Shown here: positions 4,726 to 62,829 of the stretch, piece after piece | How the letters are laid out: each line of letters opens with the position of its first letter | Position numbering within the stretch: position 1 is the first letter of the stretch | Source of the DNA: Candidatus Omnitrophota bacterium | GTDB taxonomy: Bacteria; Omnitrophota; Omnitrophia; Omnitrophales; Aquincolibacteriaceae | DNA: 64,000 nucleotides | Reading direction: 5' to 3' | NCBI GenBank assembly: GCA_043718225.1 | Contig: JAYSWD010000001.1 | Coordinates: 49,092 to 113,091 of the forward strand | Position numbers and translations under genes: made by a program | The notes under the pieces: generated by a model | The model's input: only the letters and a program-made list of their open reading frames with translations | Databases searched by the model: none | What the model was told of the DNA's origin: nothing

Positions 4726-5817
4726 GTGAAAGACATAACTGTGAAAATACGGGAAAGATTAGAAAAGCTGGTTTTAAGAAAAGGCGAGGTCGAGGCACAA
4801 TTGTCCGATCCCGTGACACTGCAGAATTCCACGCTGGTTCAAAAATTGACACGCGAACTTTCCTCAATCCGTCCGATCATTAAAAAATTCGCGGAATATA
4901 AAATGAGCGAAGCCCATCGCCACGCGCTTGACTCCGCATCCGATTCCGATCCCGAAATGGAAAAAATGATCCGCGAAGAAAAAGAAGCTCTCGACCAAAA
5001 ACTTGGAAGCCTTCAACTTGAGATGGAAGATTTATTTTTAAAGGGCAGTGAGCCCGACGCTTCGCGCGACGTGATCATGGAAATCCGCGCCGGAACAGGC
5101 GGAGAAGAAGCGGCGCTATTTGTTGGCGTGCTTGTGCGCATGTACGAATATTTCGCGGGCAAACACGGCCTTAAAACGGCGATGATGGAATCAAGCGAAA
5201 CCGAATTGGGCGGTTACAAAGAAGCTGTTTTTTCAATCGCCGGTGAAAACGCTTACAGCTACTTTCGATTTGAACGCGGCATTCATCGCGTTCAGCGGGT
5301 TCCCAAAACCGAATCCAGCGGACGCGTGCATACTTCCGCGGTTACCGTTGCGGTGCTTGCCGAAGTTTCCGAAGAAGAAGTCGAAATACTGCCGAAAGAT
5401 CTCAAAATTGACGTTTACCGTGCCGGCGGCAAAGGCGGACAGCATGTCAATAAAACCGAATCGGCTGTCCGTATTACGCATCTTCCGAGCGGTTTTGTCG
5501 TGACGTGTCAGGATGAAAGGTCCCAAATGAAGAATAAAGCCAGCGCAATGCGTGTATTGAGGGCGCGGCTTTTTGAATTCCAGCGCGCCAAGGAGCATGA
5601 CGCCCAGGCCAAGATTCGCAAAGAGCAGGTTGGAACCGGCGATAGATCGGGCAAAATACGCACCTATAACTATCCGGATCAACGGGTTACGGATCATCGA
5701 ATCGGTTTGACATTGCATAGTCTCGATGATATTCTCGACGGCTCTTTGGACCCTATTGTGGACGCCCTATGGCGCGCTGAAAGGGAAAAAAAGCTGACTC
5801 AGGCTAGCGATAGCTGA
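4726..5817 (+). CDS. prfA: peptide chain release factor 1
   Basis: GGQ motif (AGGKGGQHVNKTESAVRITHLPSG) and RF-1 domain architecture. The stop overlaps the start of prmC. Confidence 0.9.
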   Translation: MKDITVKIRERLEKLVLRKGEVEAQLSDPVTLQNSTLVQKLTRELSSIRPIIKKFAEYKMSEAHRHALDSASDSDPEMEKMIREEKEALDQKLGSLQLEMEDLFLKGSEPDASRDVIMEIRAGTGGEEAALFVGVLVRMYEYFAGKHGLKTAMMESSETELGGYKEAVFSIAGENAYSYFRFERGIHRVQRVPKTESSGRVHTSAVTVAVLAEVSEEEVEILPKDLKIDVYRAGGKGGQHVNKTESAVRITHLPSGFVVTCQDERSQMKNKASAMRVLRARLFEFQRAKEHDAQAKIRKEQVGTGDRSGKIRTYNYPDQRVTDHRIGLTLHSLDDILDGSLDPIVDALWRAEREKKLTQASDS

Positions 5818-6731
5818 TGCTGATCGGCGAAGCTTTATCTCTAGGAGAAAACCGGCTGAAACTTGCTGGCGTCCTTGAGGCTAGGACTGAATGCGAGCAT
5901 ATGTTGATGGAGCTGATGAACGCGAATCGTTCAGAAGTGCTGTTTTATATTAGCTCTGAGCAAAGCTCAACCGCGCCGTTTCATTTTGCCTCTGAGCCTT
6001 CGGCTCAAACGGCGAAGAGCAATTTGACGGCGCAGCAAGAGAAACAGTTTTTTGATTGGATTGCGAGCAGGGGAAAAAGAATTCCTTTGGCGTATTTGCT
6101 GGGCGATACGTTTTTTCATTCTTTGAAATTAAAAGTGGGACCGGGATGTTTGATTCCGCGGCCTGAAACAGAACGGTTGGTGGAAGCGGCGCTTAAGATT
6201 ATCCGCGAAGATAAATTGAATGCCCCGGTAATCATGGATATTGGAACGGGATCGGGCGCGATTGCGCTTGCGATTTTAGCCGCCGTGCCTGAGGCTAAAG
6301 CGGTGATGGTTGACTTTTCTGCGGAAGCTTTGAAGATTGCCCGTGAGAATACTGCGGAACTTGGATTTTTAGGCCGCGCTGAGTTAATTCACTCAGATTT
6401 ATATTTAAATATACCGTCTGATTTGAAAGTTAATTTGATTTTGTCGAATCCGCCCTATTTAACGGCCGAAGATTTGGCCGGCCTGCAGCCGGAAGTGGTT
6501 TTTGAGCCGCGAATGGCATTAGACGGCGGGAAAGACGGCTTGGATTTTTACCGGAAAATGATTCCGGATGCCGCAAAGTTTTTAAAGCCGCAAGGCTGGT
6601 TGGGATTTGAAGTCGGCGCCGGACAGGCCCAGGCAGTTAGCGCAGAGTTAAAGAGAAACGGTTATGAAGATCTGAGAATTATTAAAGATCATCAAGATAT
6701 AGAGCGCATAGTTTTAGCCCGAAAAGGTTGA
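5817..6731 (+). CDS. prmC: release factor glutamine N5-methyltransferase PrmC/HemK, carrying an in-frame ~20 aa insertion made of two Family A repeat copies
   Basis: NPPY motif (LSNPPYL), the SAM-binding MDIGTGSGAIA, and PLAYLLG..LIPRPETE. It aligns collinearly with E. coli PrmC except for the insertion SSTAPFHFASEPSAQTAKSN. Confidence 0.85.
   Translation: MLIGEALSLGENRLKLAGVLEARTECEHMLMELMNANRSEVLFYISSEQSSTAPFHFASEPSAQTAKSNLTAQQEKQFFDWIASRGKRIPLAYLLGDTFFHSLKLKVGPGCLIPRPETERLVEAALKIIREDKLNAPVIMDIGTGSGAIALAILAAVPEAKAVMVDFSAEALKIARENTAELGFLGRAELIHSDLYLNIPSDLKVNLILSNPPYLTAEDLAGLQPEVVFEPRMALDGGKDGLDFYRKMIPDAAKFLKPQGWLGFEVGAGQAQAVSAELKRNGYEDLRIIKDHQDIERIVLARKG
5943..5964 (+). repeat. Family A repeat, in-frame inside prmC
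   Basis: gctctgagcaaagctcaaccgc. Confidence 0.8.
5979..6004 (+). repeat. Family A repeat, in-frame inside prmC
   Basis: cctctgagccttcggctcaaacggcg. Confidence 0.75.
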
Positions 6732-24411: not shown

Positions 24412-26151
24412 ATGAACTCCGACGAACAAATTACAAAAGACCAGCTGTTTTCACGCATTAAGCAGCGGAAGCAGCTGCTTGTTAAAAGACAAATGGTTGT
24501 GGCGGTGCTAGCCCTTGTTTTTGGCGGCCTGTTTGCAATGAAGGTTTTTGAACCGCTCGAATTTTTTTTCCTGGATAGCTGGCTTTCGCGGGCGCAGTGG
24601 AAAACAGAAACGAGCGTTGTTTTGGTGCCGATTACGGAAAAAAGCATTCAGCTCATCGGTAAATTGCCCTGGCCTCCTTCCCAGTATTCCGCAGTCCTGG
24701 AACTTTTAGCTGCTTGGAATGCGCGTGCTGTTTATATTGACCGTCATTTTGCGGAAAATTGGCCTGCCGAAGAATGGCAGCCGCTTTTAAAAATATTGCT
24801 AAAACGCAAAATCCCTGTTTTTTTTGCTTCCGGTGAATCATCCGGAGGGAAGACGATGAACTATCGAAATCCGCTTTCAGATTCAAAACCAGACACGGTT
24901 GATCTGCCGAAACAAATCAGTAAATATGCATTTTTTGGACACCGGGAATTAATGTCAGGGAAAGATCATGTTTTTCGCTTTTGGCAGCCCTGGATTAAAG
25001 ACAGCCGGGGGTTGACCCATCATTTAGCAGCATTGACCATGCTTATGGATCTCCGTTTTAATTTCAAGGACCGGGCGCTCGTGCGGTCATCAAGAAAAGA
25101 AATGCGGTTAATTCCCTGGAACCGTGTTCGCTTCGAAACTTGGCCACGTGTCGAGTTTTCGGATTTAATGCAAAACTATGTTCCCGCGCGCGACGGAATT
25201 CCTTCGCTGCTACCCACCACTTTATTTAATGACAAAGTTATTTTTATCGGCCAGGTGGATGAACCGCACGCAGGCTCAGGGTTAACGCCATGGAGAGAAG
25301 CCGTTGCTCCGATTGAAACCATGGCTGCAATTTATGACGGCTTGGGACGGCCGGGGTGGAACCTGAGTGTGATGGCGCCTTTTTGGGGATGCATTGTGTT
25401 TTTTATTTTGGTTGCGGGCCTGTTGATTGCATGGGTCGGAGTTTGCGCCGGAATGCGCTTTTGGCTGGGTTGGTTTGGACTGCTTTTTCTCGTGGCTTTG
25501 ACATGGGGCAGTTTTGTATTTTTCAAAACATGGTTTCCTTTTGCCGGGGTATTTTTGTTTTTATTAATTGCGGGTGCGGTTCTTTTTGCTTTTGAATCGA
25601 TTTATGCAGCGGGCGAACGCTCGGCATTATTTCACTTTGCGACGCGCGACGGATTAACAAATATTTATTCCATCCGTCATTTTCGTTTGATAATGAATCA
25701 AGTTACCCGTGAAGCGGCGATGAGATCCGAAGCATTGGCGGTTATTTTAATCGACATCGATTATTTCAAAAAAATCAATGACAGCTACGGCCATGCGGCG
25801 GGAGATAGGGTGATAAAAAAAACGGCGGAAGTGATCGAGGCGTCAATCAGGCAAAAAAGGACCTTTAAAGACGTTGATTTTCTTGCGCGGTATGGTGGTG
25901 AAGAATTTATCATTTTAATGCGCCGATCTTCGCTTGAAAATGCGGGCTTGGTTGCTGAGCGGATTCGAAACGCAATCGGACAAACGCATTTTGAGTGGCA
26001 GCTTAAGCGCGTTTTTGTAACTGTAAGTTTGGGCGTCGCCGTATTACATGAAGGTGAAAATGTTCCCGACCCCATGGTGCATCGAGCCGACAAGGCGCTT
26101 TATCGCGCCAAAGAAGCCGGGCGTAATTGTGTTTGTGTCGAGGAAGTGTAA
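24412..26151 (+). CDS. membrane diguanylate cyclase: CHASE2-like periplasmic sensor, TM bundle and GGDEF domain
   Basis: The N-terminal TM and ~250 aa periplasmic region are followed by three or four TM segments and a GGDEF domain (RYGGEEFIIL). Confidence 0.75.
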   Translation: MNSDEQITKDQLFSRIKQRKQLLVKRQMVVAVLALVFGGLFAMKVFEPLEFFFLDSWLSRAQWKTETSVVLVPITEKSIQLIGKLPWPPSQYSAVLELLAAWNARAVYIDRHFAENWPAEEWQPLLKILLKRKIPVFFASGESSGGKTMNYRNPLSDSKPDTVDLPKQISKYAFFGHRELMSGKDHVFRFWQPWIKDSRGLTHHLAALTMLMDLRFNFKDRALVRSSRKEMRLIPWNRVRFETWPRVEFSDLMQNYVPARDGIPSLLPTTLFNDKVIFIGQVDEPHAGSGLTPWREAVAPIETMAAIYDGLGRPGWNLSVMAPFWGCIVFFILVAGLLIAWVGVCAGMRFWLGWFGLLFLVALTWGSFVFFKTWFPFAGVFLFLLIAGAVLFAFESIYAAGERSALFHFATRDGLTNIYSIRHFRLIMNQVTREAAMRSEALAVILIDIDYFKKINDSYGHAAGDRVIKKTAEVIEASIRQKRTFKDVDFLARYGGEEFIILMRRSSLENAGLVAERIRNAIGQTHFEWQLKRVFVTVSLGVAVLHEGENVPDPMVHRADKALYRAKEAGRNCVCVEEV

Positions 26152-26184
26152 AATAATTTTTTTTATAAACAAAAATAAAGCTCG

Positions 26185-27960
26185 ATGATCAATTTAGACG
26201 AGCCCCTTACAACCGACCAGCTCTTTAGCCGTACCAAGCAGCGTCAGAATCTTTTAATTAAACGCCAAATTTTAACGTCAGTTTGCGCGCTGGTTTTCGG
26301 TGTGTTGCTTTTTTCGCGAACACTTGAACCGTTAGAGACAGCGCTTCTCGATGGATGGCTTTCGCGCACGCAGACAGAGGGCGCGCCGAAAATTGTTCTC
26401 ATTTCTGTTTCCGGCAAAAGCATCAGTCAAATCGGCAAATGGCCCTGGCCGCCTTTTCAGCATGCCGTGATGCTTGAATTACTTCAGCGCTTTGGAGCGC
26501 GTTCGGTTTATATTGACCATCCTTTTTCTGAAGCGTGGCGGGAAGAAGAGCAAAAACCGCTTACAACCGTTCTTGCCCGGCATCAAATGCCGGTTTTTTT
26601 TGCCGCGAATTACAGTCCTCGTTTTGAAAACGCCGGTCCCGGCCTTACGATTTTAAAGCAAGAAGGCCCGGCAAAAATGGAATGGGTGCGGCCTGTTCCG
26701 GAAATCGCGGAACTTGCGGCCTTCGGACACCGGCAGCTCAAGCCCGAACAAGACAGGGTTTTTCGCTTTTGGCAGCCGTGGCTGGAAGGACAGGAAGTTT
26801 CTTACCCACTTGCCGCGGTTAAGATGAACATGGAAACGCAAGCGAACCTTCGCGACAGCTCGCTGCTCAATTCTAACGAAACAGGAAAGCGTTTAATTCC
26901 CTGGAACCAAGCGCGTTATAAAAGTTGGCTGCGAATTGAATTTTCAGATTTAGTGGAAAGTTACCTGGCGATGCGCGAAGGCATGCGCCCCGCGATAACA
27001 GCCGAGATCTTTAAAGGCCGCGATGCTTTTATCGGCCTCGCGGATGAAGCCCAAGCGTTTTCAGGTTTGACACCGTGGCATCAAACCGTTTTTCCTTTTG
27101 AAGTTATGGCGGCCATTTTTGACGGGTTAAATCATCCGGGCCACAACATACGCCGCGTGGCGGGCGCGTATGCTCCGCTTATTTTTCTGCTTGCCGCGGC
27201 CGGAGTGCTTATTTTTTGCACAGGCAGAGCGGTTGGCCCTTTTTTTTGGATGGTTTGGGCAGGATTACTTTTCGGCGTGGTTTTAGCCTGGGCTATTTTC
27301 GTTTTTTTATTGATTTGGCTGCCTTGCGCGGCAGTGCTTTTATTTCTTTTAGTTTCAGGCGCGGCTATTTTTGCTTTTGACGCTTTGCATGCAAGACAGC
27401 AGCATTCGGCTCTTTTTCACCTCGCCACGCGCGATGGATTAACCAATTTATATGTGATCCGGCATTTTCGCGTCATCATGAATCAACTGACGCGCGAGGC
27501 CTGTGCTCGCAAAGAGCCGATTGCGGTTATTCTCATGGACATCGATCATTTCAAAATAATCAACGACACTTATGGCCACCCCGCGGGGGACATGGTGTTG
27601 AAAAAAACCGCACAGGCGATACAGGCCGCGGTCCGTCAAAAACGAATGTTTAAAGACATCGATTTTGTCGCGCGTTATGGCGGAGAAGAATTTATTGTCC
27701 TTGTCCGGCGCAATTCGCTTGAAATGGTATCTTCTAGGATCGCGGAACGGATTCGAAAGGCGATTCAGGAAACTCATTATGAATGGGAAGGAGAGCGCAT
27801 TTTTGTGACCGCCAGTTTTGGTGTTGCGGTTTTAAATGAAGGTGAAAATATTCCCGATGCCATGGTTCACCGCGCGGATAAAGCGCTTTATCTCGCGAAG
27901 CAAAATGGCCGTAACCGGGTTTGCACTGAGAACGATGTCAGGGGTGTCAAGGAAGCCTGA
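26185..27960 (+). CDS. membrane diguanylate cyclase, tandem paralog of the preceding gene
   Basis: It has the same architecture and is collinear with 24412-26151 (DQLFSRTKQR.., RYGGEEFIVL). I judge roughly 45% identity by eye. Confidence 0.75.
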   Translation: MINLDEPLTTDQLFSRTKQRQNLLIKRQILTSVCALVFGVLLFSRTLEPLETALLDGWLSRTQTEGAPKIVLISVSGKSISQIGKWPWPPFQHAVMLELLQRFGARSVYIDHPFSEAWREEEQKPLTTVLARHQMPVFFAANYSPRFENAGPGLTILKQEGPAKMEWVRPVPEIAELAAFGHRQLKPEQDRVFRFWQPWLEGQEVSYPLAAVKMNMETQANLRDSSLLNSNETGKRLIPWNQARYKSWLRIEFSDLVESYLAMREGMRPAITAEIFKGRDAFIGLADEAQAFSGLTPWHQTVFPFEVMAAIFDGLNHPGHNIRRVAGAYAPLIFLLAAAGVLIFCTGRAVGPFFWMVWAGLLFGVVLAWAIFVFLLIWLPCAAVLLFLLVSGAAIFAFDALHARQQHSALFHLATRDGLTNLYVIRHFRVIMNQLTREACARKEPIAVILMDIDHFKIINDTYGHPAGDMVLKKTAQAIQAAVRQKRMFKDIDFVARYGGEEFIVLVRRNSLEMVSSRIAERIRKAIQETHYEWEGERIFVTASFGVAVLNEGENIPDAMVHRADKALYLAKQNGRNRVCTENDVRGVKEA

Positions 27961-28022: not shown

Positions 28023-28109
28023 GGAGAGGTGGCAGAGTGGTTGAATGCGCTAGTCTCGAAAACTGGTATGCCCGCAAGGGTATCGGGGGTTCGAATCCCC
28101 CCCTCTCCG
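28023..28109 (+). tRNA. tRNA-Ser (anticodon CGA), class II with a long variable arm
   Basis: Acceptor GGAGAGG/CCTCTCC, anticodon loop CTCGAAA, T-arm GGGGGTTCGAATCCCCC, discriminator G. CCA is not encoded. Confidence 0.85.
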
Positions 28110-28407: not shown

Positions 28408-28508
28408 GTATCGATTCCGCTAATTGAAATCATGCTTGCTAGAACAGAGTGGCGTTAATTCCCTGGCAGATGCTTTTATTTTATTTGAAGAGGGAACGCT
28501 CTCACGTT

Positions 28509-30062
28509 ATGATTTCCCCAATGAATTTCACTGCGAAACGCTCGCCGTCCTTTATTTTAATTTTATTTTTTCCGCTTATTTTGCTTTCTGCATGCTCCAA
28601 GAAAAATGAAGTTTCACCTGCCGTAGATACGCTTATTTTAAAAAACGGCGGAAAAATTCAATGCGAAATTATTAAAGAAGATGAAACAAAAATAACCGTT
28701 CAATATCAGGGCGGGCTGGTCGATTTCACGCGCGCGGAAATTCAAACGATTTTGCATGATCAGCAAACCGTGAAAACGGAAGATGGTATTGAGACCTCAG
28801 TTGATCGCGGCGAGACCCGGCTTGCGAAGAATTATCCTTATGTGCGCACAACGGATGGCAAGGCGCATTATGGCAAGAAGCTTCGCAAGGAAGGCGCCAA
28901 TTTTATTTTTGAAAGCGCGGATGAAGCGTCTGAAACGATTCCTCAAGATAAAATCGAAAAAATACTGCTTTGGCCCGCCGCGGATCAAAAAACTTTAAGT
29001 AAAGATTTTCAAAAAATGATCGAGAAAAATCCAAAAAAAATTTACCATTTAGACCCTTACGTTATTTATTCGGATGTGGAATCCTCGGATTTTGTCTTAT
29101 ATCGCAATGCCGTTGAGGGTGCTTATCATCGTTTCATGACTTATTTTTTTGAATTGGTGGATACCGAGCACGCGCCAGATTGGGGGCTGGGCGTAATTCT
29201 CTACGGTAAGTACGAGGATTATCTTAAAAGCGGAGGGCCGCCTAAAACGGCGGGATATTATCGGTCCGATGATCACGTTTTGCGGCTTTACAATGTCCGC
29301 GAAATGGAAATGGTCAAATGGGTTTTGGGAGTGGAAGAAAAATTTGGATCCGAGGTCGGAAAAAAATTAACCAATATCGAGGCTTCAAACAGCGGGGCTG
29401 AAACCGGTAAATGGCGGGCTTATGACTTTTATGAGAAGCTTCAACACGCGGTTGAAAAAGACCGGCTGCGCATCGAACAAACCGCCCGCTCGGAAACCAT
29501 GGAAACAATTCGGCATGAAGGCACGCATCAGATTTTAAATTTATTTGGAATTGACCGGGATTTTCGTGGAGTTTGGTTTTCTGAAGGAATGGCGGATTAT
29601 CTTTCTCCCTCCGAGCCGAATGGGATTGTGCTCAGCCGCATGATGTCGCTTAAATCGGAATTGGAAGATGGGCATAAACTTCTTCCGTTGGATTACATGA
29701 TGAGCATGCCTTCCGGCGGACATATTTATAATTTCAAAGATTTTCATCTTACGGGCCAGTTTTATTCTCAGAGCTGGGCGTTTGTCCACATGTTGATGAA
29801 TCATTATCGCGTGCCTTTTATAGCCTATATGGCGGAGCTCAAGGTGCAGGATAAAAAATTTGATGTGACGCAAGACAAGGCTCTTTTCCAGAAACATATC
29901 GGTAAAAAGCTTTCCGAGCTGGATGAAGAGCTTGAGGCTTATGTCGCTGAACTTGGCAGTCAAATGGATGAAGAGGAGTATCTCTTTTTCAAACATGCGG
30001 GGCTTAGGGGCCAGCAGCAAAAAAAAGACTTTGAGGACTCGATTCAAAACCTGCGGCATTGA
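28509..30062 (+). CDS. lipoprotein with an HExxH zinc-metallopeptidase motif (DUF1570-like)
   Basis: Lipobox LLSAC after the Met at 28509, and IRHEGTHQ as an HExxH motif. The nearest family match is uncertain. Confidence 0.5.
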   Translation: MISPMNFTAKRSPSFILILFFPLILLSACSKKNEVSPAVDTLILKNGGKIQCEIIKEDETKITVQYQGGLVDFTRAEIQTILHDQQTVKTEDGIETSVDRGETRLAKNYPYVRTTDGKAHYGKKLRKEGANFIFESADEASETIPQDKIEKILLWPAADQKTLSKDFQKMIEKNPKKIYHLDPYVIYSDVESSDFVLYRNAVEGAYHRFMTYFFELVDTEHAPDWGLGVILYGKYEDYLKSGGPPKTAGYYRSDDHVLRLYNVREMEMVKWVLGVEEKFGSEVGKKLTNIEASNSGAETGKWRAYDFYEKLQHAVEKDRLRIEQTARSETMETIRHEGTHQILNLFGIDRDFRGVWFSEGMADYLSPSEPNGIVLSRMMSLKSELEDGHKLLPLDYMMSMPSGGHIYNFKDFHLTGQFYSQSWAFVHMLMNHYRVPFIAYMAELKVQDKKFDVTQDKALFQKHIGKKLSELDEELEAYVAELGSQMDEEEYLFFKHAGLRGQQQKKDFEDSIQNLRH

Positions 30063-30140
30063 GTCTGATGCATTTTCGAATCTATAAGACTTTCTTTTTA
30101 TTCAGAAATTAATTTGGTCTTCAAAAAACTTGATTTGAGT

Positions 30141-30178
30141 TTGCTCGGACAGTCCTCGCTTCGCTGCGGAACTCGCAA
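30141..30178 (+). repeat. Family D 35 nt motif (GCTCRRACAGTCCTCG.CTTCGC.TGCGGAACTCGC), left end of a ~410 bp element
   Basis: ttgctcggacagtcctcgcttcgctgcggaactcgcaa, enclosed by the ACTTGATT / AATCAAGT stem. Confidence 0.6.
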
Positions 30179-30513
30179 CTCCCAATCAAGTTTTCTGAAA
30201 ATATCCTCGCAAGTGGGGGTGTAGGCTGTAAGCAGAGAAAAAAGGCTGAGCCACGCTCTTCGTCAAAATGCGATAGAGTTAAATAAAAACGATATCCCTC
30301 GAACTTCAAAGAATTTTCCCATGATCTTTTTTCATGGCGCTGCTGAGCCGCGCCATGAAAAAGTATTATTGGAAACTTCACCAGCTGGTTCGAGGTATTT
30401 AATTAGCAAAAGAACGCGGAGCTTTCGAGTAAGTTGATATGCGCAACTTGTTTCTCCTTTCATAGCCCACATCCCCATCTTTGTTGCTATGTCGTCAGGG
30501 CAGAGGCTTAGCA

Positions 30514-30551
30514 TGCGAGTTCCGCAGGCCAAAGGCCGAGGACTGTTTGAG
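30514..30551 (-). repeat. Family D motif, inverted copy at the right end of the element
   Basis: The reverse complement reads gctcaaacagtcctcggcctttggcctgcggaactcgc. Confidence 0.6.
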
Positions 30552-30651
30552 CAGGCGAAGCTTCTGCTCGGGCGACCAAGCTATTTTATAAAAGAGATTA
30601 TTTTTTGAATACAAGAGCTAGTTACCATTCACTATCCACGAGTCACAATTC

Positions 30652-30672
30652 GCTGCTATAATGACCCCCATG
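30652..30672 (+). promoter_or_regulatory. Extended −10 box TGCTATAAT 7 nt upstream of the second dnaX ATG (leaderless-type arrangement)
   Basis: gctgctataatgacccccATG. Confidence 0.35.
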
Positions 30673-32436
30673 GCAGCCAAAGAATCTCCCAAACCCTCAG
30701 GTTATCTTGTTTTCGCGCGTAAATACCGCCCTCAGACTTTTGACGAAGTCGTCGGGCAGCAATCCACGCTGACAACGCTTAAAAACGCGCTGGCTTCGGG
30801 ACGTATCCCGCAAAGTTTTATTTTCTCAGGTTCCCGCGGCGTCGGAAAGACATCCGTCGCGCGTATTCTCGCGAAAGCTTTGAACGCGTCCGGCGGAGCA
30901 AACCCCGATTTTGACCGTAAAGACGCGGCTGCCCGTGAAATTGAAGAAGGCCGCTCCATGGATGTGCTTGAAATTGACGGCGCATCCAATCGCGGCATCG
31001 AAGAAATCCGTTCCTTGCGCGAAACCGTTAAATTCAAACCCGCATCCGGCGCGTATAAAATTTATATTATCGATGAAGTCCATATGCTCACAACCGAAGC
31101 GTTCAATGCTTTGCTCAAAACGCTTGAAGAGCCGCCACCGCATGTAAAATTTATTTTCGCGACAACTGAAATTCACAAAGTGCCGCTGACGATTCTTTCG
31201 CGCTGTCAGCGTTTTCATTTTCGCCGGCTCACCGCGGATGAAATTGTTGAGAAACTGGTCGATATCGCGAAAATTGAAAAAATCAAATGCGACAAAGACG
31301 CACTTTATTTAATCGCGCGCGCGAGTGACGGAGCGCTGCGTGACGCTGAAAGCCTGCTGGATCAAATTTCCAGTTTTTCCGACGGTGAAATTAAAGAAGA
31401 ATCCGTTCTGACATTGCTCGGAATTGCCTCCGACAAAATCAATGAAACTCTGATCGAAGCGGTGAAGGCGCGCAGCGGCCAGGATATTTTGGCCGTGATT
31501 CAATCTTTTTATGAAAGTGGCGGCGACTTGCTTCAGCTTTCGCGCGGATTTTTTGAAATTTTAAGGCATTTGCTTGTGCTGCAGCATGTCAAAGACACAC
31601 AGGGTTTAATCGAAGCGGGACCCGCGATGCTTGAAATGTTGAAAAAACATAAAGCCTCTTTTAGCGAAGCCGAAATTTTACTCGGCCTTGCCATCTTCCA
31701 AAACCTGCAGGCTGATTTGCGCCGGCCCGTAACCGCGCCGCGCTTCATGGTTGAAGCCGCTTTTTTAAAATTGATTTATGCCGACGGCATGCGTTCCGTA
31801 AACGAACTGATTTCTAATTTCTCCCTGCCTGCCGCCCGGCCGGTGAGCGAGCCGCAACCGGCAATACCAAAACGAAATATTTCTTCTGCTCCGGCTCAGC
31901 AAAACGTTCCACAGCCGCCGATTAAATCTCAGTCTGTCGCTCCGGTAAAACCTTCAACATACAATGAACCCAAAGCGCAGATCCAACCTAGGGTTGGTGG
32001 CTCGGGAACAGAGACGCTGGTTGCGCCTTTGGCGCAGAAGCAAAATGAAATAGCAATTGAACAGGTTAAGACGGCTTGGCCGAACGTGATTGAATCCGTC
32101 AAACAAAAGCGCATGTCCACCGGCATTTTTCTTTCCGAGGCCGAACCTGTCGAAGTAGATGACACTGTGATTATTTTAGGGCTTCCCGAAGAGTTTAAAT
32201 TTCATAAGGAGAGCCTTGAAAAAGATAACAATAAAAAACTGGTCGAAGATTGTTTTTCAGAAAGTATCGGAACCAAAGTCCGCGTGCGTTTTGTCGTGAC
32301 ACAGCAAGCTGCCGTCGAAAGACCGGCACCCCGGCCCGTGACGCTTCCTTCGGAGTCCGAAAAACGGGAGCTGCCAGATATTATTACGAAAGCGCTGGAT
32401 GTTTTTGACGGCGCTAAAATCGTTCGTGCTGAATAA
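30661..32436 (+). CDS. dnaX: DNA polymerase III subunit gamma/tau
   Basis: AAA+ clamp-loader motifs (GSRGVGKTS, DEVHMLT, SRCQRF). The start may be the second ATG at 30670. Confidence 0.9.
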   Translation: MTPMAAKESPKPSGYLVFARKYRPQTFDEVVGQQSTLTTLKNALASGRIPQSFIFSGSRGVGKTSVARILAKALNASGGANPDFDRKDAAAREIEEGRSMDVLEIDGASNRGIEEIRSLRETVKFKPASGAYKIYIIDEVHMLTTEAFNALLKTLEEPPPHVKFIFATTEIHKVPLTILSRCQRFHFRRLTADEIVEKLVDIAKIEKIKCDKDALYLIARASDGALRDAESLLDQISSFSDGEIKEESVLTLLGIASDKINETLIEAVKARSGQDILAVIQSFYESGGDLLQLSRGFFEILRHLLVLQHVKDTQGLIEAGPAMLEMLKKHKASFSEAEILLGLAIFQNLQADLRRPVTAPRFMVEAAFLKLIYADGMRSVNELISNFSLPAARPVSEPQPAIPKRNISSAPAQQNVPQPPIKSQSVAPVKPSTYNEPKAQIQPRVGGSGTETLVAPLAQKQNEIAIEQVKTAWPNVIESVKQKRMSTGIFLSEAEPVEVDDTVIILGLPEEFKFHKESLEKDNNKKLVEDCFSESIGTKVRVRFVVTQQAAVERPAPRPVTLPSESEKRELPDIITKALDVFDGAKIVRAE

Positions 32437-51135: not shown

Positions 51136-51187
51136 GATCCTGCAAAGCTCTTTGCATTAAATAAAATTGGGATGTGCTCATAAAAGG

Positions 51188-51238
51188 AATACAAATTTAC
51201 TCAAAAGTTGCCTTTTTAGGAAAAACTCGTAAATTCGT
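51188..51238. terminator. Long AT-rich hairpin between the convergent phoR and membrane-transporter genes
   Basis: ggaatacaaatttac ... gtaaattcgtattcc: a 14/15 bp stem with a 28 nt loop. Confidence 0.4.
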
Positions 51239-51247
51239 ATTCCTTAT

Positions 51248-52306
51248 TTAAAACCCATAAGCAAGCGCAAGTCCGCCGATCAAAAGCCCTAATGCTAGCT
51301 TAATAACCTTAATCACAATGACATCGCGCTTGGGATAAGGCAAGAGAGGCAGAATTCCGTGGCCTTCCTGAACGATCGAATTTGCGAGTAAAATCGAAAA
51401 GGGAATTGCGCCTTGCGAAAAAAGAACCGCGAAAGTTAAATGCGGGCCCGAAACGGGAAGCAGACCGATTAGCAAAGCAAAAACCAGCGTCTGCCAGAGG
51501 TTTTGGCTCAGCCAGGAATGCAGCCCCACATATTGCCCGCCCACTTTTAAAAGCAGTAGGGTTCCGGCTGTCCAAAGAGCGAATTTTGGTAAATGATGTT
51601 TGATGATATGCTCCCAAACATGTTCCTCAAGATAATGTCCGGAAGTTTTTAGGAAAATCCAAAGTGAAGAAAGCAGCGCGAAAGCGGTGAACCATGTTTC
51701 GCCGCGCTCATGTTGGCCGTGGCTTTCATGCGCATGGCCTATAAATTCAGGGTGATGGATCCAGCCGAGAATCAGCGCGGCAGAGAGGCTCAGCATAATG
51801 GCGGAAAGAATCCAGCGCAGGTTCGCGGCTGAAATTGAATAACCGGATTTTTCATGATGATGGGAATGGTCACTGTCTTCGCCGTGCATCGGTAATTCAT
51901 GGAAAAGAGGAGAAGTTTTTTCAAAATTTGGAAAGAAACGGTCAAAAAGCGCGCCTACAGAAAAACCGAGAATGATCAGCAGGGCAAAAAGAAAAAGCGC
52001 CTTTTGAGGAAAAAGCGCGAGCATAAAAAACCCCTCATCGCCGGTTGCCGCGATCATTCCCGCCAAAAGCGCACCGAATGAGTAAAGACGATGAGTGTAA
52101 AGCGAAACGTTGATAAAAGAGCCAAAACAGCCTGGAAGCCCCCCCAGAACCGTTGCTGAAACATATTGGTGATGAGGATGTTTCTTCAGGTGTTCCGCCG
52201 CGCGGCCATGCGTTAAAGTATTAAGATAGTCCGCCCAAAGCAGCATCACAAAAGCGAGCGCGAGAAACCAAATGGTGTCGTTCAGTAAATCCATTAGAAA
52301 AACCAT
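51248..52306 (-). CDS. polytopic membrane protein with His-rich loops (putative heavy-metal transporter)
   Basis: About ten predicted TM segments and the loops EDSDHSHHHEKSG and GHAHESHGQHERGE. Confidence 0.45.
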   Translation of the reverse strand: MVFLMDLLNDTIWFLALAFVMLLWADYLNTLTHGRAAEHLKKHPHHQYVSATVLGGLPGCFGSFINVSLYTHRLYSFGALLAGMIAATGDEGFFMLALFPQKALFLFALLIILGFSVGALFDRFFPNFEKTSPLFHELPMHGEDSDHSHHHEKSGYSISAANLRWILSAIMLSLSAALILGWIHHPEFIGHAHESHGQHERGETWFTAFALLSSLWIFLKTSGHYLEEHVWEHIIKHHLPKFALWTAGTLLLLKVGGQYVGLHSWLSQNLWQTLVFALLIGLLPVSGPHLTFAVLFSQGAIPFSILLANSIVQEGHGILPLLPYPKRDVIVIKVIKLALGLLIGGLALAYGF

Positions 52307-60675: not shown

Positions 60676-60736
60676 TTTTTTCCTGTCATTTCCAGCTTAG
60701 TCGAGAGTCTATAAGGCTCAAAAAAATTCTATCGCT

Positions 60737-60772
60737 GGCTCAAACAGTCCTCGGCTTCGCCTGCGGAACTCG
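60737..60772 (+). repeat. Family D motif, third copy between dps and the R-M island
   Basis: gctcaaacagtcctcggcttcgcctgcggaactcgc, enclosed by the ctcaaaaaaattctatc / gataggatttttttgag stem. Confidence 0.6.
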
Positions 60773-61068
60773 CCATTGATAGGATTTTTTTGAGTTCATC
60801 GCTCAAGGGGTGGAGGCTTAAAAAGGAGAAACAAGGCGAAGAATGCCGAGTTGCTCGAAGGCGCTTTTATTTTATCTGCGGATACCTGCCTCGAATCTTT
60901 GAATAGTTTCCCATCATACGGTCTTTCCTCGATTCCACGCGAATCGCGGAAAGACGGACGTATCTCCGTCCTTTGGCGGAGGCGCTAAAGGAGGCGGGGA
61001 TTGACTCACATGCTGCGCAGTGGTATCAAAATAGTAGTTAGTATTTTTTATTTAAGCCGATAACTCTT

Positions 61069-61680
61069 TTGATGAAAATCATAAAAATAACCACGCTTAT
61101 TGAATCTGGGCCTTTTTCCAAATCAGATATCTTGGAAAAAATTCTTAAAGAAATTTATTCCTCCATCGAGAAAATTGAACACCCAAAAGGATCTGGTAAA
61201 TTTATTTTACATGACCAATGCGGAAAGAAGCGGGGCGAAGGTAATGGCGTTAAACCCATTAAGCTATTGTGCATGAAATTTTTAAAGCAGGCGGGATGGG
61301 AGTTGGAAACCAGAGAGCCGGTATCCTCTGAAAAGCACCCTGGCCCTATCGATGCCGCACTGAAAGTGGCGGGAAGATTATTTTGTTTTGAATGGGAAAC
61401 TGGAAATATTTCGTCTAGCCATAGAGCCTTAAATAAAATGGCAATAGGCATTTTGAAAGGGCGACTTATAGGTGGAGTATTAGTTTTGCCATCAAGGGCA
61501 ATGTATCATTACCTTACCGATCGAGTTGGAAATTTTCAAGAAATAGAGCCTTACTTTCTTTTGTGGAAATCGTTATCTGTTAAAGAGGGTTATCTCGCGG
61601 TAATTGAAATTGAACATGACGGAGTGAGTAAAAAAGTAAAACGAATACCCAAAGGGACAGATGGGCGAGCGTTAAATTAA
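61069..61680 (+). CDS. Type II restriction endonuclease, BamHI-like
   Basis: Collinear similarity to R.BamHI as I remember it, including PID...FEWETGNISSSHRALNKM (the D/E.E catalytic triad), YLTDRVGNFQEIEPYF and IPKGTDG. GC is about 35% against roughly 50% for the window. Confidence 0.7.
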   Translation: MMKIIKITTLIESGPFSKSDILEKILKEIYSSIEKIEHPKGSGKFILHDQCGKKRGEGNGVKPIKLLCMKFLKQAGWELETREPVSSEKHPGPIDAALKVAGRLFCFEWETGNISSSHRALNKMAIGILKGRLIGGVLVLPSRAMYHYLTDRVGNFQEIEPYFLLWKSLSVKEGYLAVIEIEHDGVSKKVKRIPKGTDGRALN

Positions 61681-62829
61681 AAGCAAATTTTCTTTTTTGT
61701 TTTGTTCTATTCGTCTAATGATGGGGAAGCAGTCTTCGATTTCGCACCCAATCCACCGACGCTTTAGTCTTTCTGCTGCATAGTAAGTGGTCCCACCGCC
61801 ACCAAATGGATCAAAAACCAAATCATTTTCCTGAGTCGCAATTTTTAAGACGCGCTCAAGCAATTTGACAGATAATTCATTTGCTGGACGAGCTTTGTTT
61901 TTTTTGTGACGCACAGGAGGAATATCATCCCACACATCTGTAAGATTTAATCCCAACGGATTTAAAAATTTTCTATGCCCGCCATAATCTTTTATATCGC
62001 CACCGCAATGTCTGCATTTTGGAATGGGGACGCGCAGATGATTAAAAGTTTGAGGCTTGCCCTTGGTGAAATAGAGCAAACTGTAGTGCGAGGGGTACAA
62101 ACGGCCCGGAATGGGAAGGGAAAGCTTGATGTTGACGGCGATCCAGTGGCGAAATGTTAATTGTTTAATGAGAAACGAAGAGTAGTAAACATTCCATTTT
62201 GGGATGTTGTATACAAAAAGACTTCCTCCTGGCTTTAATATGCGAACGCATTCTTCCAGCCACTGATATGACCACTGTAAATATTTTTCTTCCGCTAGAT
62301 TGTCGTTAACTTTCGCACCATAGTTTTTATTTAAATTAAATGGCGGGTCAGCAAAAATGCAGTCGATGGATTCAGTGTCAATTTTAGGGAGCAGGTCTAA
62401 ACAGTCGGCTTTATACAATTTTCCCAAAGAGCTTTCATAGATAGGTTGCAATGACTTCTCTTCTTGGATTTCTCTTTCATAGTTATAGACAGAGAAACTT
62501 TCCCGCAAAACAGAGGCAGCTTCTGATGGGTGCTCGTGAAAAATTTTGTAAATATCTTTTGGTAATTTTCCAGTAGCCAGGCGCAGACGATCGATGTCTT
62601 GTTTGAAGTATTTAGATACTTTTTTAAGAAGTTTGTCTGAAGGCGGAACAGAGCCCTTTTCAACTCGGCTTAGATAAGCGTGGTCGACTTGAATTTTTTC
62701 TGAAAACTTTCGAATGCTGAGCTTTTGATTCAATCTAATTTTTTTGATTACATTTTGAGGAGCCAAGATTTCTCCAGGTGTTGACTTGATTTGTCCACAC
62801 ATTGTTGCATTTTTAAGACGACCTTGCAA
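61672..62829 (-). CDS. DNA methyltransferase (beta-class amino-MTase, N4-cytosine or N6-adenine) with an N-terminal XRE-type HTH
   Basis: Motif IV DPPF (IFADPPFNLN) precedes motif I FDPFGGGGTT, which marks the beta class. The N-terminal IKKIRLNQKLSIRKFSEKIQVDHAYLSRVEKG is an HTH. The gene is convergent with the R gene and overlaps it. Confidence 0.75.
   Translation of the reverse strand: MQGRLKNATMCGQIKSTPGEILAPQNVIKKIRLNQKLSIRKFSEKIQVDHAYLSRVEKGSVPPSDKLLKKVSKYFKQDIDRLRLATGKLPKDIYKIFHEHPSEAASVLRESFSVYNYEREIQEEKSLQPIYESSLGKLYKADCLDLLPKIDTESIDCIFADPPFNLNKNYGAKVNDNLAEEKYLQWSYQWLEECVRILKPGGSLFVYNIPKWNVYYSSFLIKQLTFRHWIAVNIKLSLPIPGRLYPSHYSLLYFTKGKPQTFNHLRVPIPKCRHCGGDIKDYGGHRKFLNPLGLNLTDVWDDIPPVRHKKNKARPANELSVKLLERVLKIATQENDLVFDPFGGGGTTYYAAERLKRRWIGCEIEDCFPIIRRIEQNKKENLLLI

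Follow-up and report, generated by a model that had tools for sequence, protein, structure and literature searches.

The gap between two genes in a 64,000-nt stretch of DNA from Candidatus Omnitrophota raises the question of what kind of element it holds. In this stretch (hereafter the window, along which all positions are counted) the gap 30063-30660 separates an open reading frame (ORF) of the DUF1570 family (28449..30062) from dnaX (30661..32436), which is followed by recR. The homologs of its DnaX protein place the window in Candidatus Omnitrophota. In the original prediction the gap contained a ~410-bp element with an AT-richer interior, bounded by 35-nt inverted repeats that resembled the terminal inverted repeats (TIRs) of a non-autonomous element. 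Our analysis gives good support to the view that the dnaX gap contains one copy of a composite repeat of two back-to-back units, each ending in a hairpin that occurs in multiple phyla. As a description it is solid that the hairpin repeat is new, widespread and strand-specific, that its junction is conserved and that the gap contains an old doublet of it.

Two back-to-back units upstream of dnaX

The inverted motif was found in the sequence as described, with its core on the plus strand at 30143-30176 and the reverse complement at 30515-30552. A repeat search delimited the inverted arms 30142-30158/30537-30553 (88%) and 30164-30177/30514-30527 (100%). The symmetry is not confined to ~410 bp, however, but spans all of 30104-30591, a ~490-bp quasi-palindrome of two diverged ~250-nt units that lie back to back and are ~65-70% alike. 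Both units terminate in a long hairpin, the conserved core of which is the 35-nt repeat. The predicted repeated, non-coding element exists, but its repeats are the cores of two separate hairpins and not its ends: the homology of the units runs 20-40 nt past them and the motif also occurs singly (hairpins C and D, see below). The 8-bp outer stem ACTTGATT/AATCAAGT noted on the left copy is real and turned out to be a piece of the larger 25-nt arm pair 30120-30144/30175-30199; the right-hand copy, hairpin B, likewise has an outer stem of its own.

Throughout this text, the F strand is the strand that reads CGAGU…CUGUYUGAG within a hairpin, and L followed by a number labels a locus from outside the window, of up to 8 kb each. 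The layout of the units was worked out by aligning two gaps, then three oriented segments and later in an eleven-way alignment. Four hairpin copies were assigned in the window by a covariance model, namely the dnaX-gap pair, 60724-60787 and 51185-51244. The third copy (60738-60773) came from a self-BLAST of the window and the fourth (D) from the covariance model. The parts are as follows:

30104..30355, minus strand (F strand): half-unit A, consisting of half of the central palindrome, the blocks GGGAAAA, TTCGAGG, CTTTTTTCTC and AGCCTACACCCCC, then hairpin A and U6 (three-way and eleven-way alignments; nhmmer body profile, E 1e-36 and 8e-28)
30337..30591, plus strand (F strand): half-unit B, block order as in A, with hairpin B at its end ~95 nt before the dnaX start codon (alignments, nhmmer)
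30120..30199, minus strand: hairpin A, outer stem P1 30120-30144/30175-30199, core 30143-30176, F-strand tip GCGAAGC (covariance model match 30129-30190, 64.6 bits, E 1e-15; arm pair from the repeat search)
30499..30575, plus strand: hairpin B, outer stem CAGAGGCTTAGCATG/CAGGCGAAGCTTCTG, core 30515-30552, tip GGCCAAAGGCC (covariance model match 30501-30566, 66.3 bits, E 3e-16; compensatory changes versus the L127 ortholog)
30311..30379, both strands: central palindrome of U-run, stem, loop, stem and A-run (34-nt arms, 82% complementary)
60699..60945, minus strand: solo half-unit C, between a Dps gene and a BamHI-like restriction gene, body blocks as in A and B
60717-60794, in half-unit C: hairpin C, core 60738-60773, followed by U7, with its own outer stem unrelated to the others (covariance model, 65.8 bits; nhmmer E 1e-32)
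51185..51244, minus strand: solo hairpin D, with a variant inner helix and without body, beginning 3 nt past the stop codon of an ArsP_2 gene on the minus strand at 51248..52306 (subfamily of L003:3087 and L041:2083; covariance model, 25.2 bits, E 1.5e-4; BLAST, 83% identity to L003)

The flanks of hairpin D are not orthologous to those of its subfamily members. The 14-mer CTGCGGAACTCGCA, with up to 2 mismatches, occurs four times in the window versus 0.64 expected, and the covariance model scores of hairpins A, B and C correspond to E values of ~1e-15 to 1e-16. Folding of the 456-nt region gave -178 kcal/mol (z = -8.25) on the plus strand, which is the leading strand across the whole window according to GC skew, and -167 kcal/mol (z = -7.2) on the minus strand.

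The AT-richness ascribed to the interior is slight, with 44.9% GC in the gap versus 47.4% in the window. The short ORFs, which had been proposed to be spurious, are not kept in orthologous gaps, and cross-locus peptide matches are 11-50 aa long, in mixed frames and on both strands. A conserved small ORF was ruled out because frames and start codons differ among units A, B and C. A scan of the window with Rfam 15 returned two tRNAs only and, in the gap, nothing credible at E <= 10, just miRNA-like noise. These tRNAs being the sole RNA genes found in the window, a known RNA upstream of dnaX (signal recognition particle RNA, tmRNA or RNase P) was ruled out. Scans of the gap for promoter and terminator consensus sequences gave no match.

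A hairpin family with a conserved junction

One genome per species (GTDB; 596 Gb) was scanned with the pattern CAGTCCTCG-N2-20-TGCGGAACTCG, which lies on the strand complementary to F. The exact core was found at at least 117 genome loci. By our own estimate ~20 chance matches are expected, similar to the roughly 30 stem-less matches in coding-looking, GC-rich sequence. Among the matches listed, 90 of 126 core instances have an outer stem, with a median of 24 bp and a maximum of 63 bp in the first scoring and 72 bp when rescored. The carriers among these matches are Coriobacteriia (52, among them cultured gut isolates of Ellagibacter, Enteroscipio and Olsenella), Omnitrophota (12), Bdellovibrionota (9), Planctomycetota (9), Dormibacterota (3) and single metagenome-assembled genomes (MAGs) of other phyla, at least six phyla in total. 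The carriers in culture include Ellagibacter isourolithinifaciens DSM 104140, Enteroscipio rubneri ResAG-96, Olsenella sp. An270 and Tractidigestivibacter montrealensis KD21. Several genomes supply many loci, and 8 kb of L003 contain four copies, the number present in the 64-kb window. Stems are shared within the genome in Coriobacteriaceae RUG13125, Eggerthellaceae MGBC165261 and Planctomycetota MAGs; in the lineage of the window and in Bdellovibrionales VAR_61 every stem is different.

The outer stem sequence differs from copy to copy and the conserved part is the junction alone, 5′-(G/A)CGAGU(U)-[variable inner hairpin]-(A)CUGUYUGAG(C/U)-3′. In 53 non-redundant copies, both sides of the outer stem P1 change at 15 of 16 pairs. 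The covariation score of P1 is 0.41, versus 0.14 in shuffles (0/500 reach it) and up to 0.25 in slid controls. The inner helix covaries as well, through the six pairings CCGC/GAGG, CUGCG/CGCAG, CGGA/UCCG, UGCC/GGCA, CUGG/CCAG and CGCCG/CGGCG. This was seen in copies found by the covariance model and not by the exact-match pattern, which biases the cross-phylum sample toward the canonical core. Integron attC sites carry conserved R″/R′ boxes at the hairpin base and a variable centre; here the layout is the reverse, with a variable base (P1) and a conserved middle. In the kink-turn of RNA, tandem sheared G·A pairs directly follow a 3-nt bulge. Beside P1, 5′-CGAG-3′/3′-GAGU-5′ could form tandem G·A pairs; however, the unpaired part of the 3′ strand measures 4-6 nt and does not adjoin them in the usual manner.

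The mismatches within the stems point to the strand that folds. In 86 distinct outer stems, the strand carrying CAGTCCTCG has 98 A·C versus 21 G·T mismatches (p = 4e-13), which on the F strand become 98 G·U versus 21 A·C. Because of this strand bias we consider one strand to be selected to fold. The G·U bias is present in four of five lineage groups, with Bdellovibrionota near even (9:6), and 73 of the 86 hairpins fold better on the F strand. An asymmetry of the opposite sign would be expected from the C-to-T mutation bias that leading strands usually show. UUCG tetraloops, considered as a sign of RNA on the other strand, were ruled out, as the register shows triloops and the mismatch asymmetry favors the F strand. 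The F-strand tips are C(GNA)G triloops in about half of the cases, with GCGAAGC the most frequent, and the inner hairpin is often tipped GCGNAGC. As DNA, the GCGNAGC mini-hairpin is far stabler than as RNA, and both single-stranded DNA (ssDNA) priming sites and hairpin promoters are known to contain it (PMC13037366, PMC3201870). Given this stability, the folded molecule may be either DNA or RNA.

Neither the motif in the window nor 16 loci of five lineages gave an Rfam 15 match at gathering score, and the core sequence or a described element of this kind was not found in the literature. To our knowledge, the family does not resemble known repetitive extragenic palindromic (REP) sequences and lacks a GTAG-type 5′ tetranucleotide. 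An origin from phages or plasmids was considered and rejected: IMG/VR contained one chance match, located within coding sequence, phage records gave no meaningful match and plasmid matches were partial and non-significant. The latter concern CCGCAGCGAAGCGAGGACT, which occurs in L125 (4001-4019) and L126 (3001-3023), that is, in IncN and other enterobacterial conjugative plasmids, each of which has it at 2-4 places in unannotated DNA. It agrees by eye with 27 of 31 core positions; the match is partial (19-23 nt, E ~0.3-0.9), stands in another context and is perhaps a coincidence.

Several loci of the family have particularities of their own. The Myxococcota copy in L104 (5343-5459) contains a 57-nt tandem duplication (2.1 copies, 100% identical), as a result of which the core halves alternate; the idea of a circularly permuted tandem array was abandoned in favor of this local duplication. 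In Eggerthellaceae MGBC165261, the loci L010, L052, L057 and L065 have an additional 70-90-nt repeat at variable distance from the hairpin, which probably represents a second repeat family in that genome. A raiA RNA (RF03072, 150.7 bits) in L011 (6348-6584, minus strand) of an Eggerthellaceae MAG is unrelated to the repeat.

Doublets, related loci and placement

All covariance model hits together yielded 20 adjacent inverted pairs. In each of them the F strands point outward (none is reversed), so that the paired hairpins fold on opposite strands in 20 of 20 cases. About 12 of them, found in Omnitrophota, Planctomycetota and Coriobacteriia, are independent. Their spacers cluster at 51-65, 151-188, 297-313 and 369-429 nt.

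In the lineage of the window the doublets are larger. A profile of the ~150-nt body (nhmmer) was found beside hairpins in this Omnitrophota lineage only and nearly always in inverted pairs, two in L003 and one each in L041, L121 and L127, in addition to one solo unit in L129. On the F strand, the 11 half-units share the order half central palindrome, A-run, TATAAT-like box, GGGAAAC, TTCGAGG, CTTCGAG, CTTGTTTCTCC, AGCCNCCACCCC and hairpin, and in six of the 11 the hairpin is followed by U6-7; high-GC copies are without U-tracts. RNAalifold predicted a long-range body helix, GGGAAAC:GUUUCU, in which A-U pairs are exchanged for G-C and which a G·U pair closes in 9 of 11 units. A central hairpin equivalent to that of the window and of different sequence is present in L121, L127 and L041. 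By eye the blocks of Planctomycetota seemed to follow a similar order, but nhmmer did not support homology of the body across phyla. Two MAGs of Planctomycetota have the pair within a repeat of ~750 nt, six recovered copies of which share 88-96% identity and have sharp ends, without TIRs or coding signal. A coding capacity of this repeat was rejected, as no frame is open throughout the copies, the periodicity is weak (44:33:28) and there is no Pfam match. Its right-end word CCTTGCAGYCCC is partly repeated in the flanks of two copies (L029, L114), perhaps a sign that a certain sequence is preferred for insertion or that the end has been duplicated.

The dnaX locus could be followed in relatives. 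The pair upstream of dnaX is kept in L127 (DnaX 84% identical) and in L121/L122 (77%), and since it is common to related genomes, the dnaX copy is old. It is missing in L129 (79%; 12 nt between the DUF1570 gene and dnaX), L120 (76%; 78-nt gap) and L123 (77%; ~48 nt), which represent the empty sites that the original prediction had called for, together with the further copies in the window and in relatives. These sites hold junction-like words, GCGAGCTGTTTTTGA in L120 (5939-5953) and GTTTGAGC in L129 (3834-3841), which could be deletion scars or insertion targets. In L118, the closest relative (DnaX 86%), comparison of 5339-6000 with window 28023-28109 showed that the DUF1570 gene is gone, the tRNA-Ser(cga) is inverted and a single hairpin is left; therefore, a rearrangement of the locus has taken place around the repeat. 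In the loci that retain the pair, outer stems, inner helices and central hairpin have all changed yet are still paired. For instance, the right-hand outer stem CAGAGGCTTAGCATG/CAGGCGAAGCTTCTG of the window corresponds to TAGGAGTTCAGCATG/CAGGCTGAACTCCTA in L127, which amounts to six compensatory or restoring changes. Because the stems change and still pair, the repeats evolve neither like ordinary spacer sequence, the alternative against which the original prediction had set them, nor like a decaying transposon.

Signs of spread exist elsewhere. A subfamily defined by the inner helix UGCC/GGCA and the inner part of the outer stem, AUUUA/UAAAU, occurs at non-orthologous loci of three genomes, and the ~750-nt copies of Planctomycetota as well as the stem-sharing families of Coriobacteriia represent recent bursts. 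In L117 (4042-4102), from a Gordonibacter MAG, the hairpin lies in frame within a 621-aa ORF for an ABC-F ATPase (…AQSLKQSSLRCGTRL…), with the ATPase domains on one side and the C-terminal coiled coil on the other, which recalls the gene-inserting Rickettsia palindromic elements (RPE).

The placement is mostly intergenic, and in most low-GC loci the outer stem begins -16 to +50 nt from a stop codon; gene calls are rough in high-GC loci. The hairpin fills the space between convergent genes in L031, in L075 and at window copy D; of 42 classifiable copies, 9 have divergent genes on their two sides. The surroundings of ~90 copies yielded no transposase, and the 117 loci of up to 8 kb each yielded no autonomous element with transposase and shared ends. 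Likewise, a gene for a RAYT (Y1/HUH transposase) was found neither beside ~90 copies nor among the recurrent neighbours, for which the Pfam summary gives the best 25 families.

Some genes of the window were noted along the way. The word TATAATG overlaps the annotated dnaX ATG (30657-30672), is kept at the dnaX starts of L118, L121, L123 and L127, and a second in-frame ATG of dnaX follows at 30670; the dnaX mRNA may be leaderless and transcribed from this -10-like box. Two adjacent paralogous CHASE2-GGDEF diguanylate cyclase genes (24412-27960) have the same arrangement in L118. Directly beside solo unit C lies the BamHI-like restriction endonuclease gene (61069..61680), convergent with a gene for an HTH-N6/N4 DNA methylase (61672..62829, minus strand).

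Competing readings and known repeat systems

We tentatively favor, at slightly under an even chance, a REP/REPIN-like, strand-specific hairpin repeat that would be recognised by a trans-acting factor. This analogy is preferred because of the copy number, the oriented doublets besides singlets, the subfamilies, the bursts, the presence or absence between relatives and the patchy distribution over multiple phyla (PMC3116915). The hairpin would fold in single-stranded form, on the F strand only, as DNA or RNA, and the junction would be the probable recognition site of a putative trans-acting protein. Such recognition would keep the structure under selection and permit occasional duplicative spread, chiefly as inverted doublets with the F strands outward. 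The hairpins would settle at the borders of genes, in many cases directly at stop codons, and would probably also block transcription there both ways. In the Omnitrophota lineage each unit of the doublet has an extra body of ~150 nt, which comprises the conserved blocks and the long-range helix.

REP sequences and their REPIN-RAYT systems resemble the family as short extragenic palindromes of high copy number that mostly form inverted doublets of preferred orientation and spacing and also occur as singlets. They share long vertical persistence with bursts, and the single-stranded hairpin is presumed to be the active form (PMC3116915, PMC3337134). They differ in that REP families conserve the stem sequence within a genome, whereas here the internal junction is conserved and the stems vary. 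Moreover, the doublet spacers reach 300-430 nt here, with a conserved body in this lineage, no RAYT gene was seen beside the ~90 copies and one core spans at least six phyla.

Several observations speak against the REP/REPIN-like reading. The exact-match search inflates the apparent sequence conservation across phyla. The copies in the lineage of the window share neither outer nor inner stems, which fits an old selected structure better than recent copy-and-paste. Target-site duplications, for which the original prediction had recommended a search, were absent from the five pairs tested, where the longest direct words shared by the flanks are 3-6 nt and AT-rich; defined termini were not found either. 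A candidate enzyme was not found in the loci either: in ~75 of them, all-against-all clustering of 2009 ORFs yielded no neighbour protein family that recurs. The ORFs nearest to the hairpins, 142 in number, match 127 Pfam families, each at most three times, the recurrent ones all being housekeeping families. Where a hairpin abuts a stop codon, its F strand is mostly antisense to the gene concerned (18 versus 5 in co-directional contexts), and none of the models considered explains this placement cleanly. The bias with regard to the replication strand is weak (36 versus 24, p = 0.16; 31 versus 15 toward the G-poor strand where |skew| > 0.02). Finally, with its conserved sequence blocks and long-range helix, the body has the appearance of a functional RNA. 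A broader reading is possible but doubtful, in which the junction hairpin would be the recognition element of an undescribed system in at least six phyla. This would be either an ssDNA-hairpin mobility, priming or promoter system without a linked gene or a protein-binding or catalytic RNA module, with the oriented doublets as its functional unit and not decayed junk.

The main rival to the REP/REPIN-like reading, which we consider unlikely, is a divergent pair of small-RNA genes. Transcription of the F strand from the centre outward would produce a structured RNA of ~200-230 nt with the hairpin as terminator and protein-binding 3′ module, and its C-rich and CUCC blocks could act as anti-Shine-Dalgarno seeds. 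The ordered body blocks with variable linkers and the covarying long-range helix, whose G·U pair exists on the F strand only, suit such genes. The same is true of the compensatory stem evolution at the orthologous locus, the U6-7 in six of 11 units, the outward F strands of every pair and solo unit C, which retains the blocks without a partner. However, no sigma-70-type promoter beyond chance was found at any pair centre, the TATAAT-like box ends 0-2 nt before GGGAAAC, too near for the helix to be in the transcript, and the 51-65-nt spacers of the compact pairs are too short for a promoter or an RNA body. Furthermore, the body is not detectable beyond the Omnitrophota lineage, near-identical multicopy bursts and the in-frame insertion into a gene are atypical of RNA genes, and the GCGNAGC tips are much stabler as DNA than as RNA (PMC13037366). 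By analogy, the hairpins might instead serve as host-level punctuation, either as bidirectional terminators or insulators or as stabilisers of mRNA 3′ ends, with the junction binding a termination or RNA-decay factor. Their position close to stop codons and in convergent gaps and the A-run/U-run arms around hairpins A and C on both strands are in line with this. A precedent exists in the TRIT (Tuberculosis Rho-independent terminator) elements of Mycobacterium, which are abundant, palindromic, bidirectional hairpins of unusually conserved sequence situated tightly at stop codons and for which a binding factor has been proposed, their function being uncertain (PMC3152330). Compared by description, TRIT elements are restricted to one genus and conserve the stem sequence, whereas here multiple phyla, a conserved junction only, strand asymmetry and oriented doublets are found. 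We regard punctuation as improbable: 9 of the 42 classifiable copies are flanked by divergent genes, the selected strand is mostly antisense to the abutting gene, the terminator scan of the gap was empty and high-GC copies lack U-tracts, and the doublets, their fixed orientation and the amplification bursts are left unexplained.

The tips of the hairpins recall ssDNA signals such as the G4 complementary-strand origin, RSF1010 ssiA/ssiB and the N4 virion RNA polymerase promoters, all of them strand-specific hairpins with C(GNA)G triloop tips. RSF1010 has two such sites on opposite strands (PMC13037366). An F-strand hairpin that is extruded or exposed as a priming site or hairpin promoter, with the pairs facing inward, would account for the C(GNA)G or GCGNAGC mini-hairpins in about half of the copies and their stability in DNA (PMC13037366, PMC3201870), and for the strict strand specificity and the fixed pair orientation; the weak bias to the G-poor strand would agree with it. 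Nevertheless, the known signals are single phage or plasmid origin or promoter sites with a dedicated enzyme, whereas the copies described here are chromosomal, numerous, located at gene ends and built on another junction. Neither a dedicated primase nor a single-subunit RNA polymerase was noticed in the vicinity, IMG/VR and plasmids provided no real copy, the overall strand bias is non-significant, and we rate this analogy as very improbable. The proposed classical miniature inverted-repeat transposable element, a ~410-bp non-autonomous transposon with 35-nt TIRs served by a DDE transposase, is largely refuted and retains hardly any probability. It agrees with the inverted repeats, the non-coding nature of the interior, the multiple copies and the sites that are empty in relatives. 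Against this stand the failure to find target-site duplications or a transposase, the location of the repeats inside hairpins with homology reaching past them, the common solo hairpins and the unrelated outer stems of the two ends, and strand-asymmetric mismatches are unexpected if TIRs are recognised in double-stranded form. Correia/CREE, ERIC/IRU, RUP and RPE elements have defined TIRs and target duplications and are each found in a narrow taxon. They are similarly non-coding, intergenic, hairpin-forming, multicopy and present or absent between relatives, and RPE share the occasional in-frame insertion into genes seen here in L117; the family differs by the lack of target duplications and defined ends and by outer stems that are unrelated among copies. 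The PATE elements derived from IS200/IS605 have their subterminal hairpins on the same (top) strand, in contrast to the opposite strands in all 20 pairs here. The slimmest chance of all is given to a self-cleaving ribozyme or other catalytic RNA built on the junction. A conserved junction, freely covarying stems and a patchy multicopy spread over multiple phyla are the pattern of small ribozymes, and we take CUGUYUGAG to be faintly like the hammerhead CUGAUGAG and ACAGUCC like the hairpin-ribozyme substrate. Yet the two words are on different strands, the hammerhead-like one on F and the one like the hairpin ribozyme on its complement. The junction is two-way, with the strands CGAGU and CUGUYUGAG and without third stem or loop-B domain, in contrast to the three-way junction of the hammerhead with its core strands CUGANGA, GAAA and UH, and no Rfam ribozyme model, including hammerhead, matched even at E <= 10.

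REP, REPIN, TRIT and Correia elements are each found in narrow taxa and their mechanism and partner enzyme are mostly debated, whereas here one junction spans many phyla. The family covaries strongly, has a clear folding strand and keeps its doublets in strict orientation, but Rfam does not contain it. By virtue of these features it can be tested directly in cultivable hosts. Puzzling are the long, near-perfect outer stem that each copy has as its own, the antisense position of the folding strand and the cause of the doublet orientation. A better understanding of the family would also help to annotate the spacers between genes and the 3′ ends of genes in phyla that have been little studied, and the repeat could turn out to represent a new class of mobile or regulatory element.

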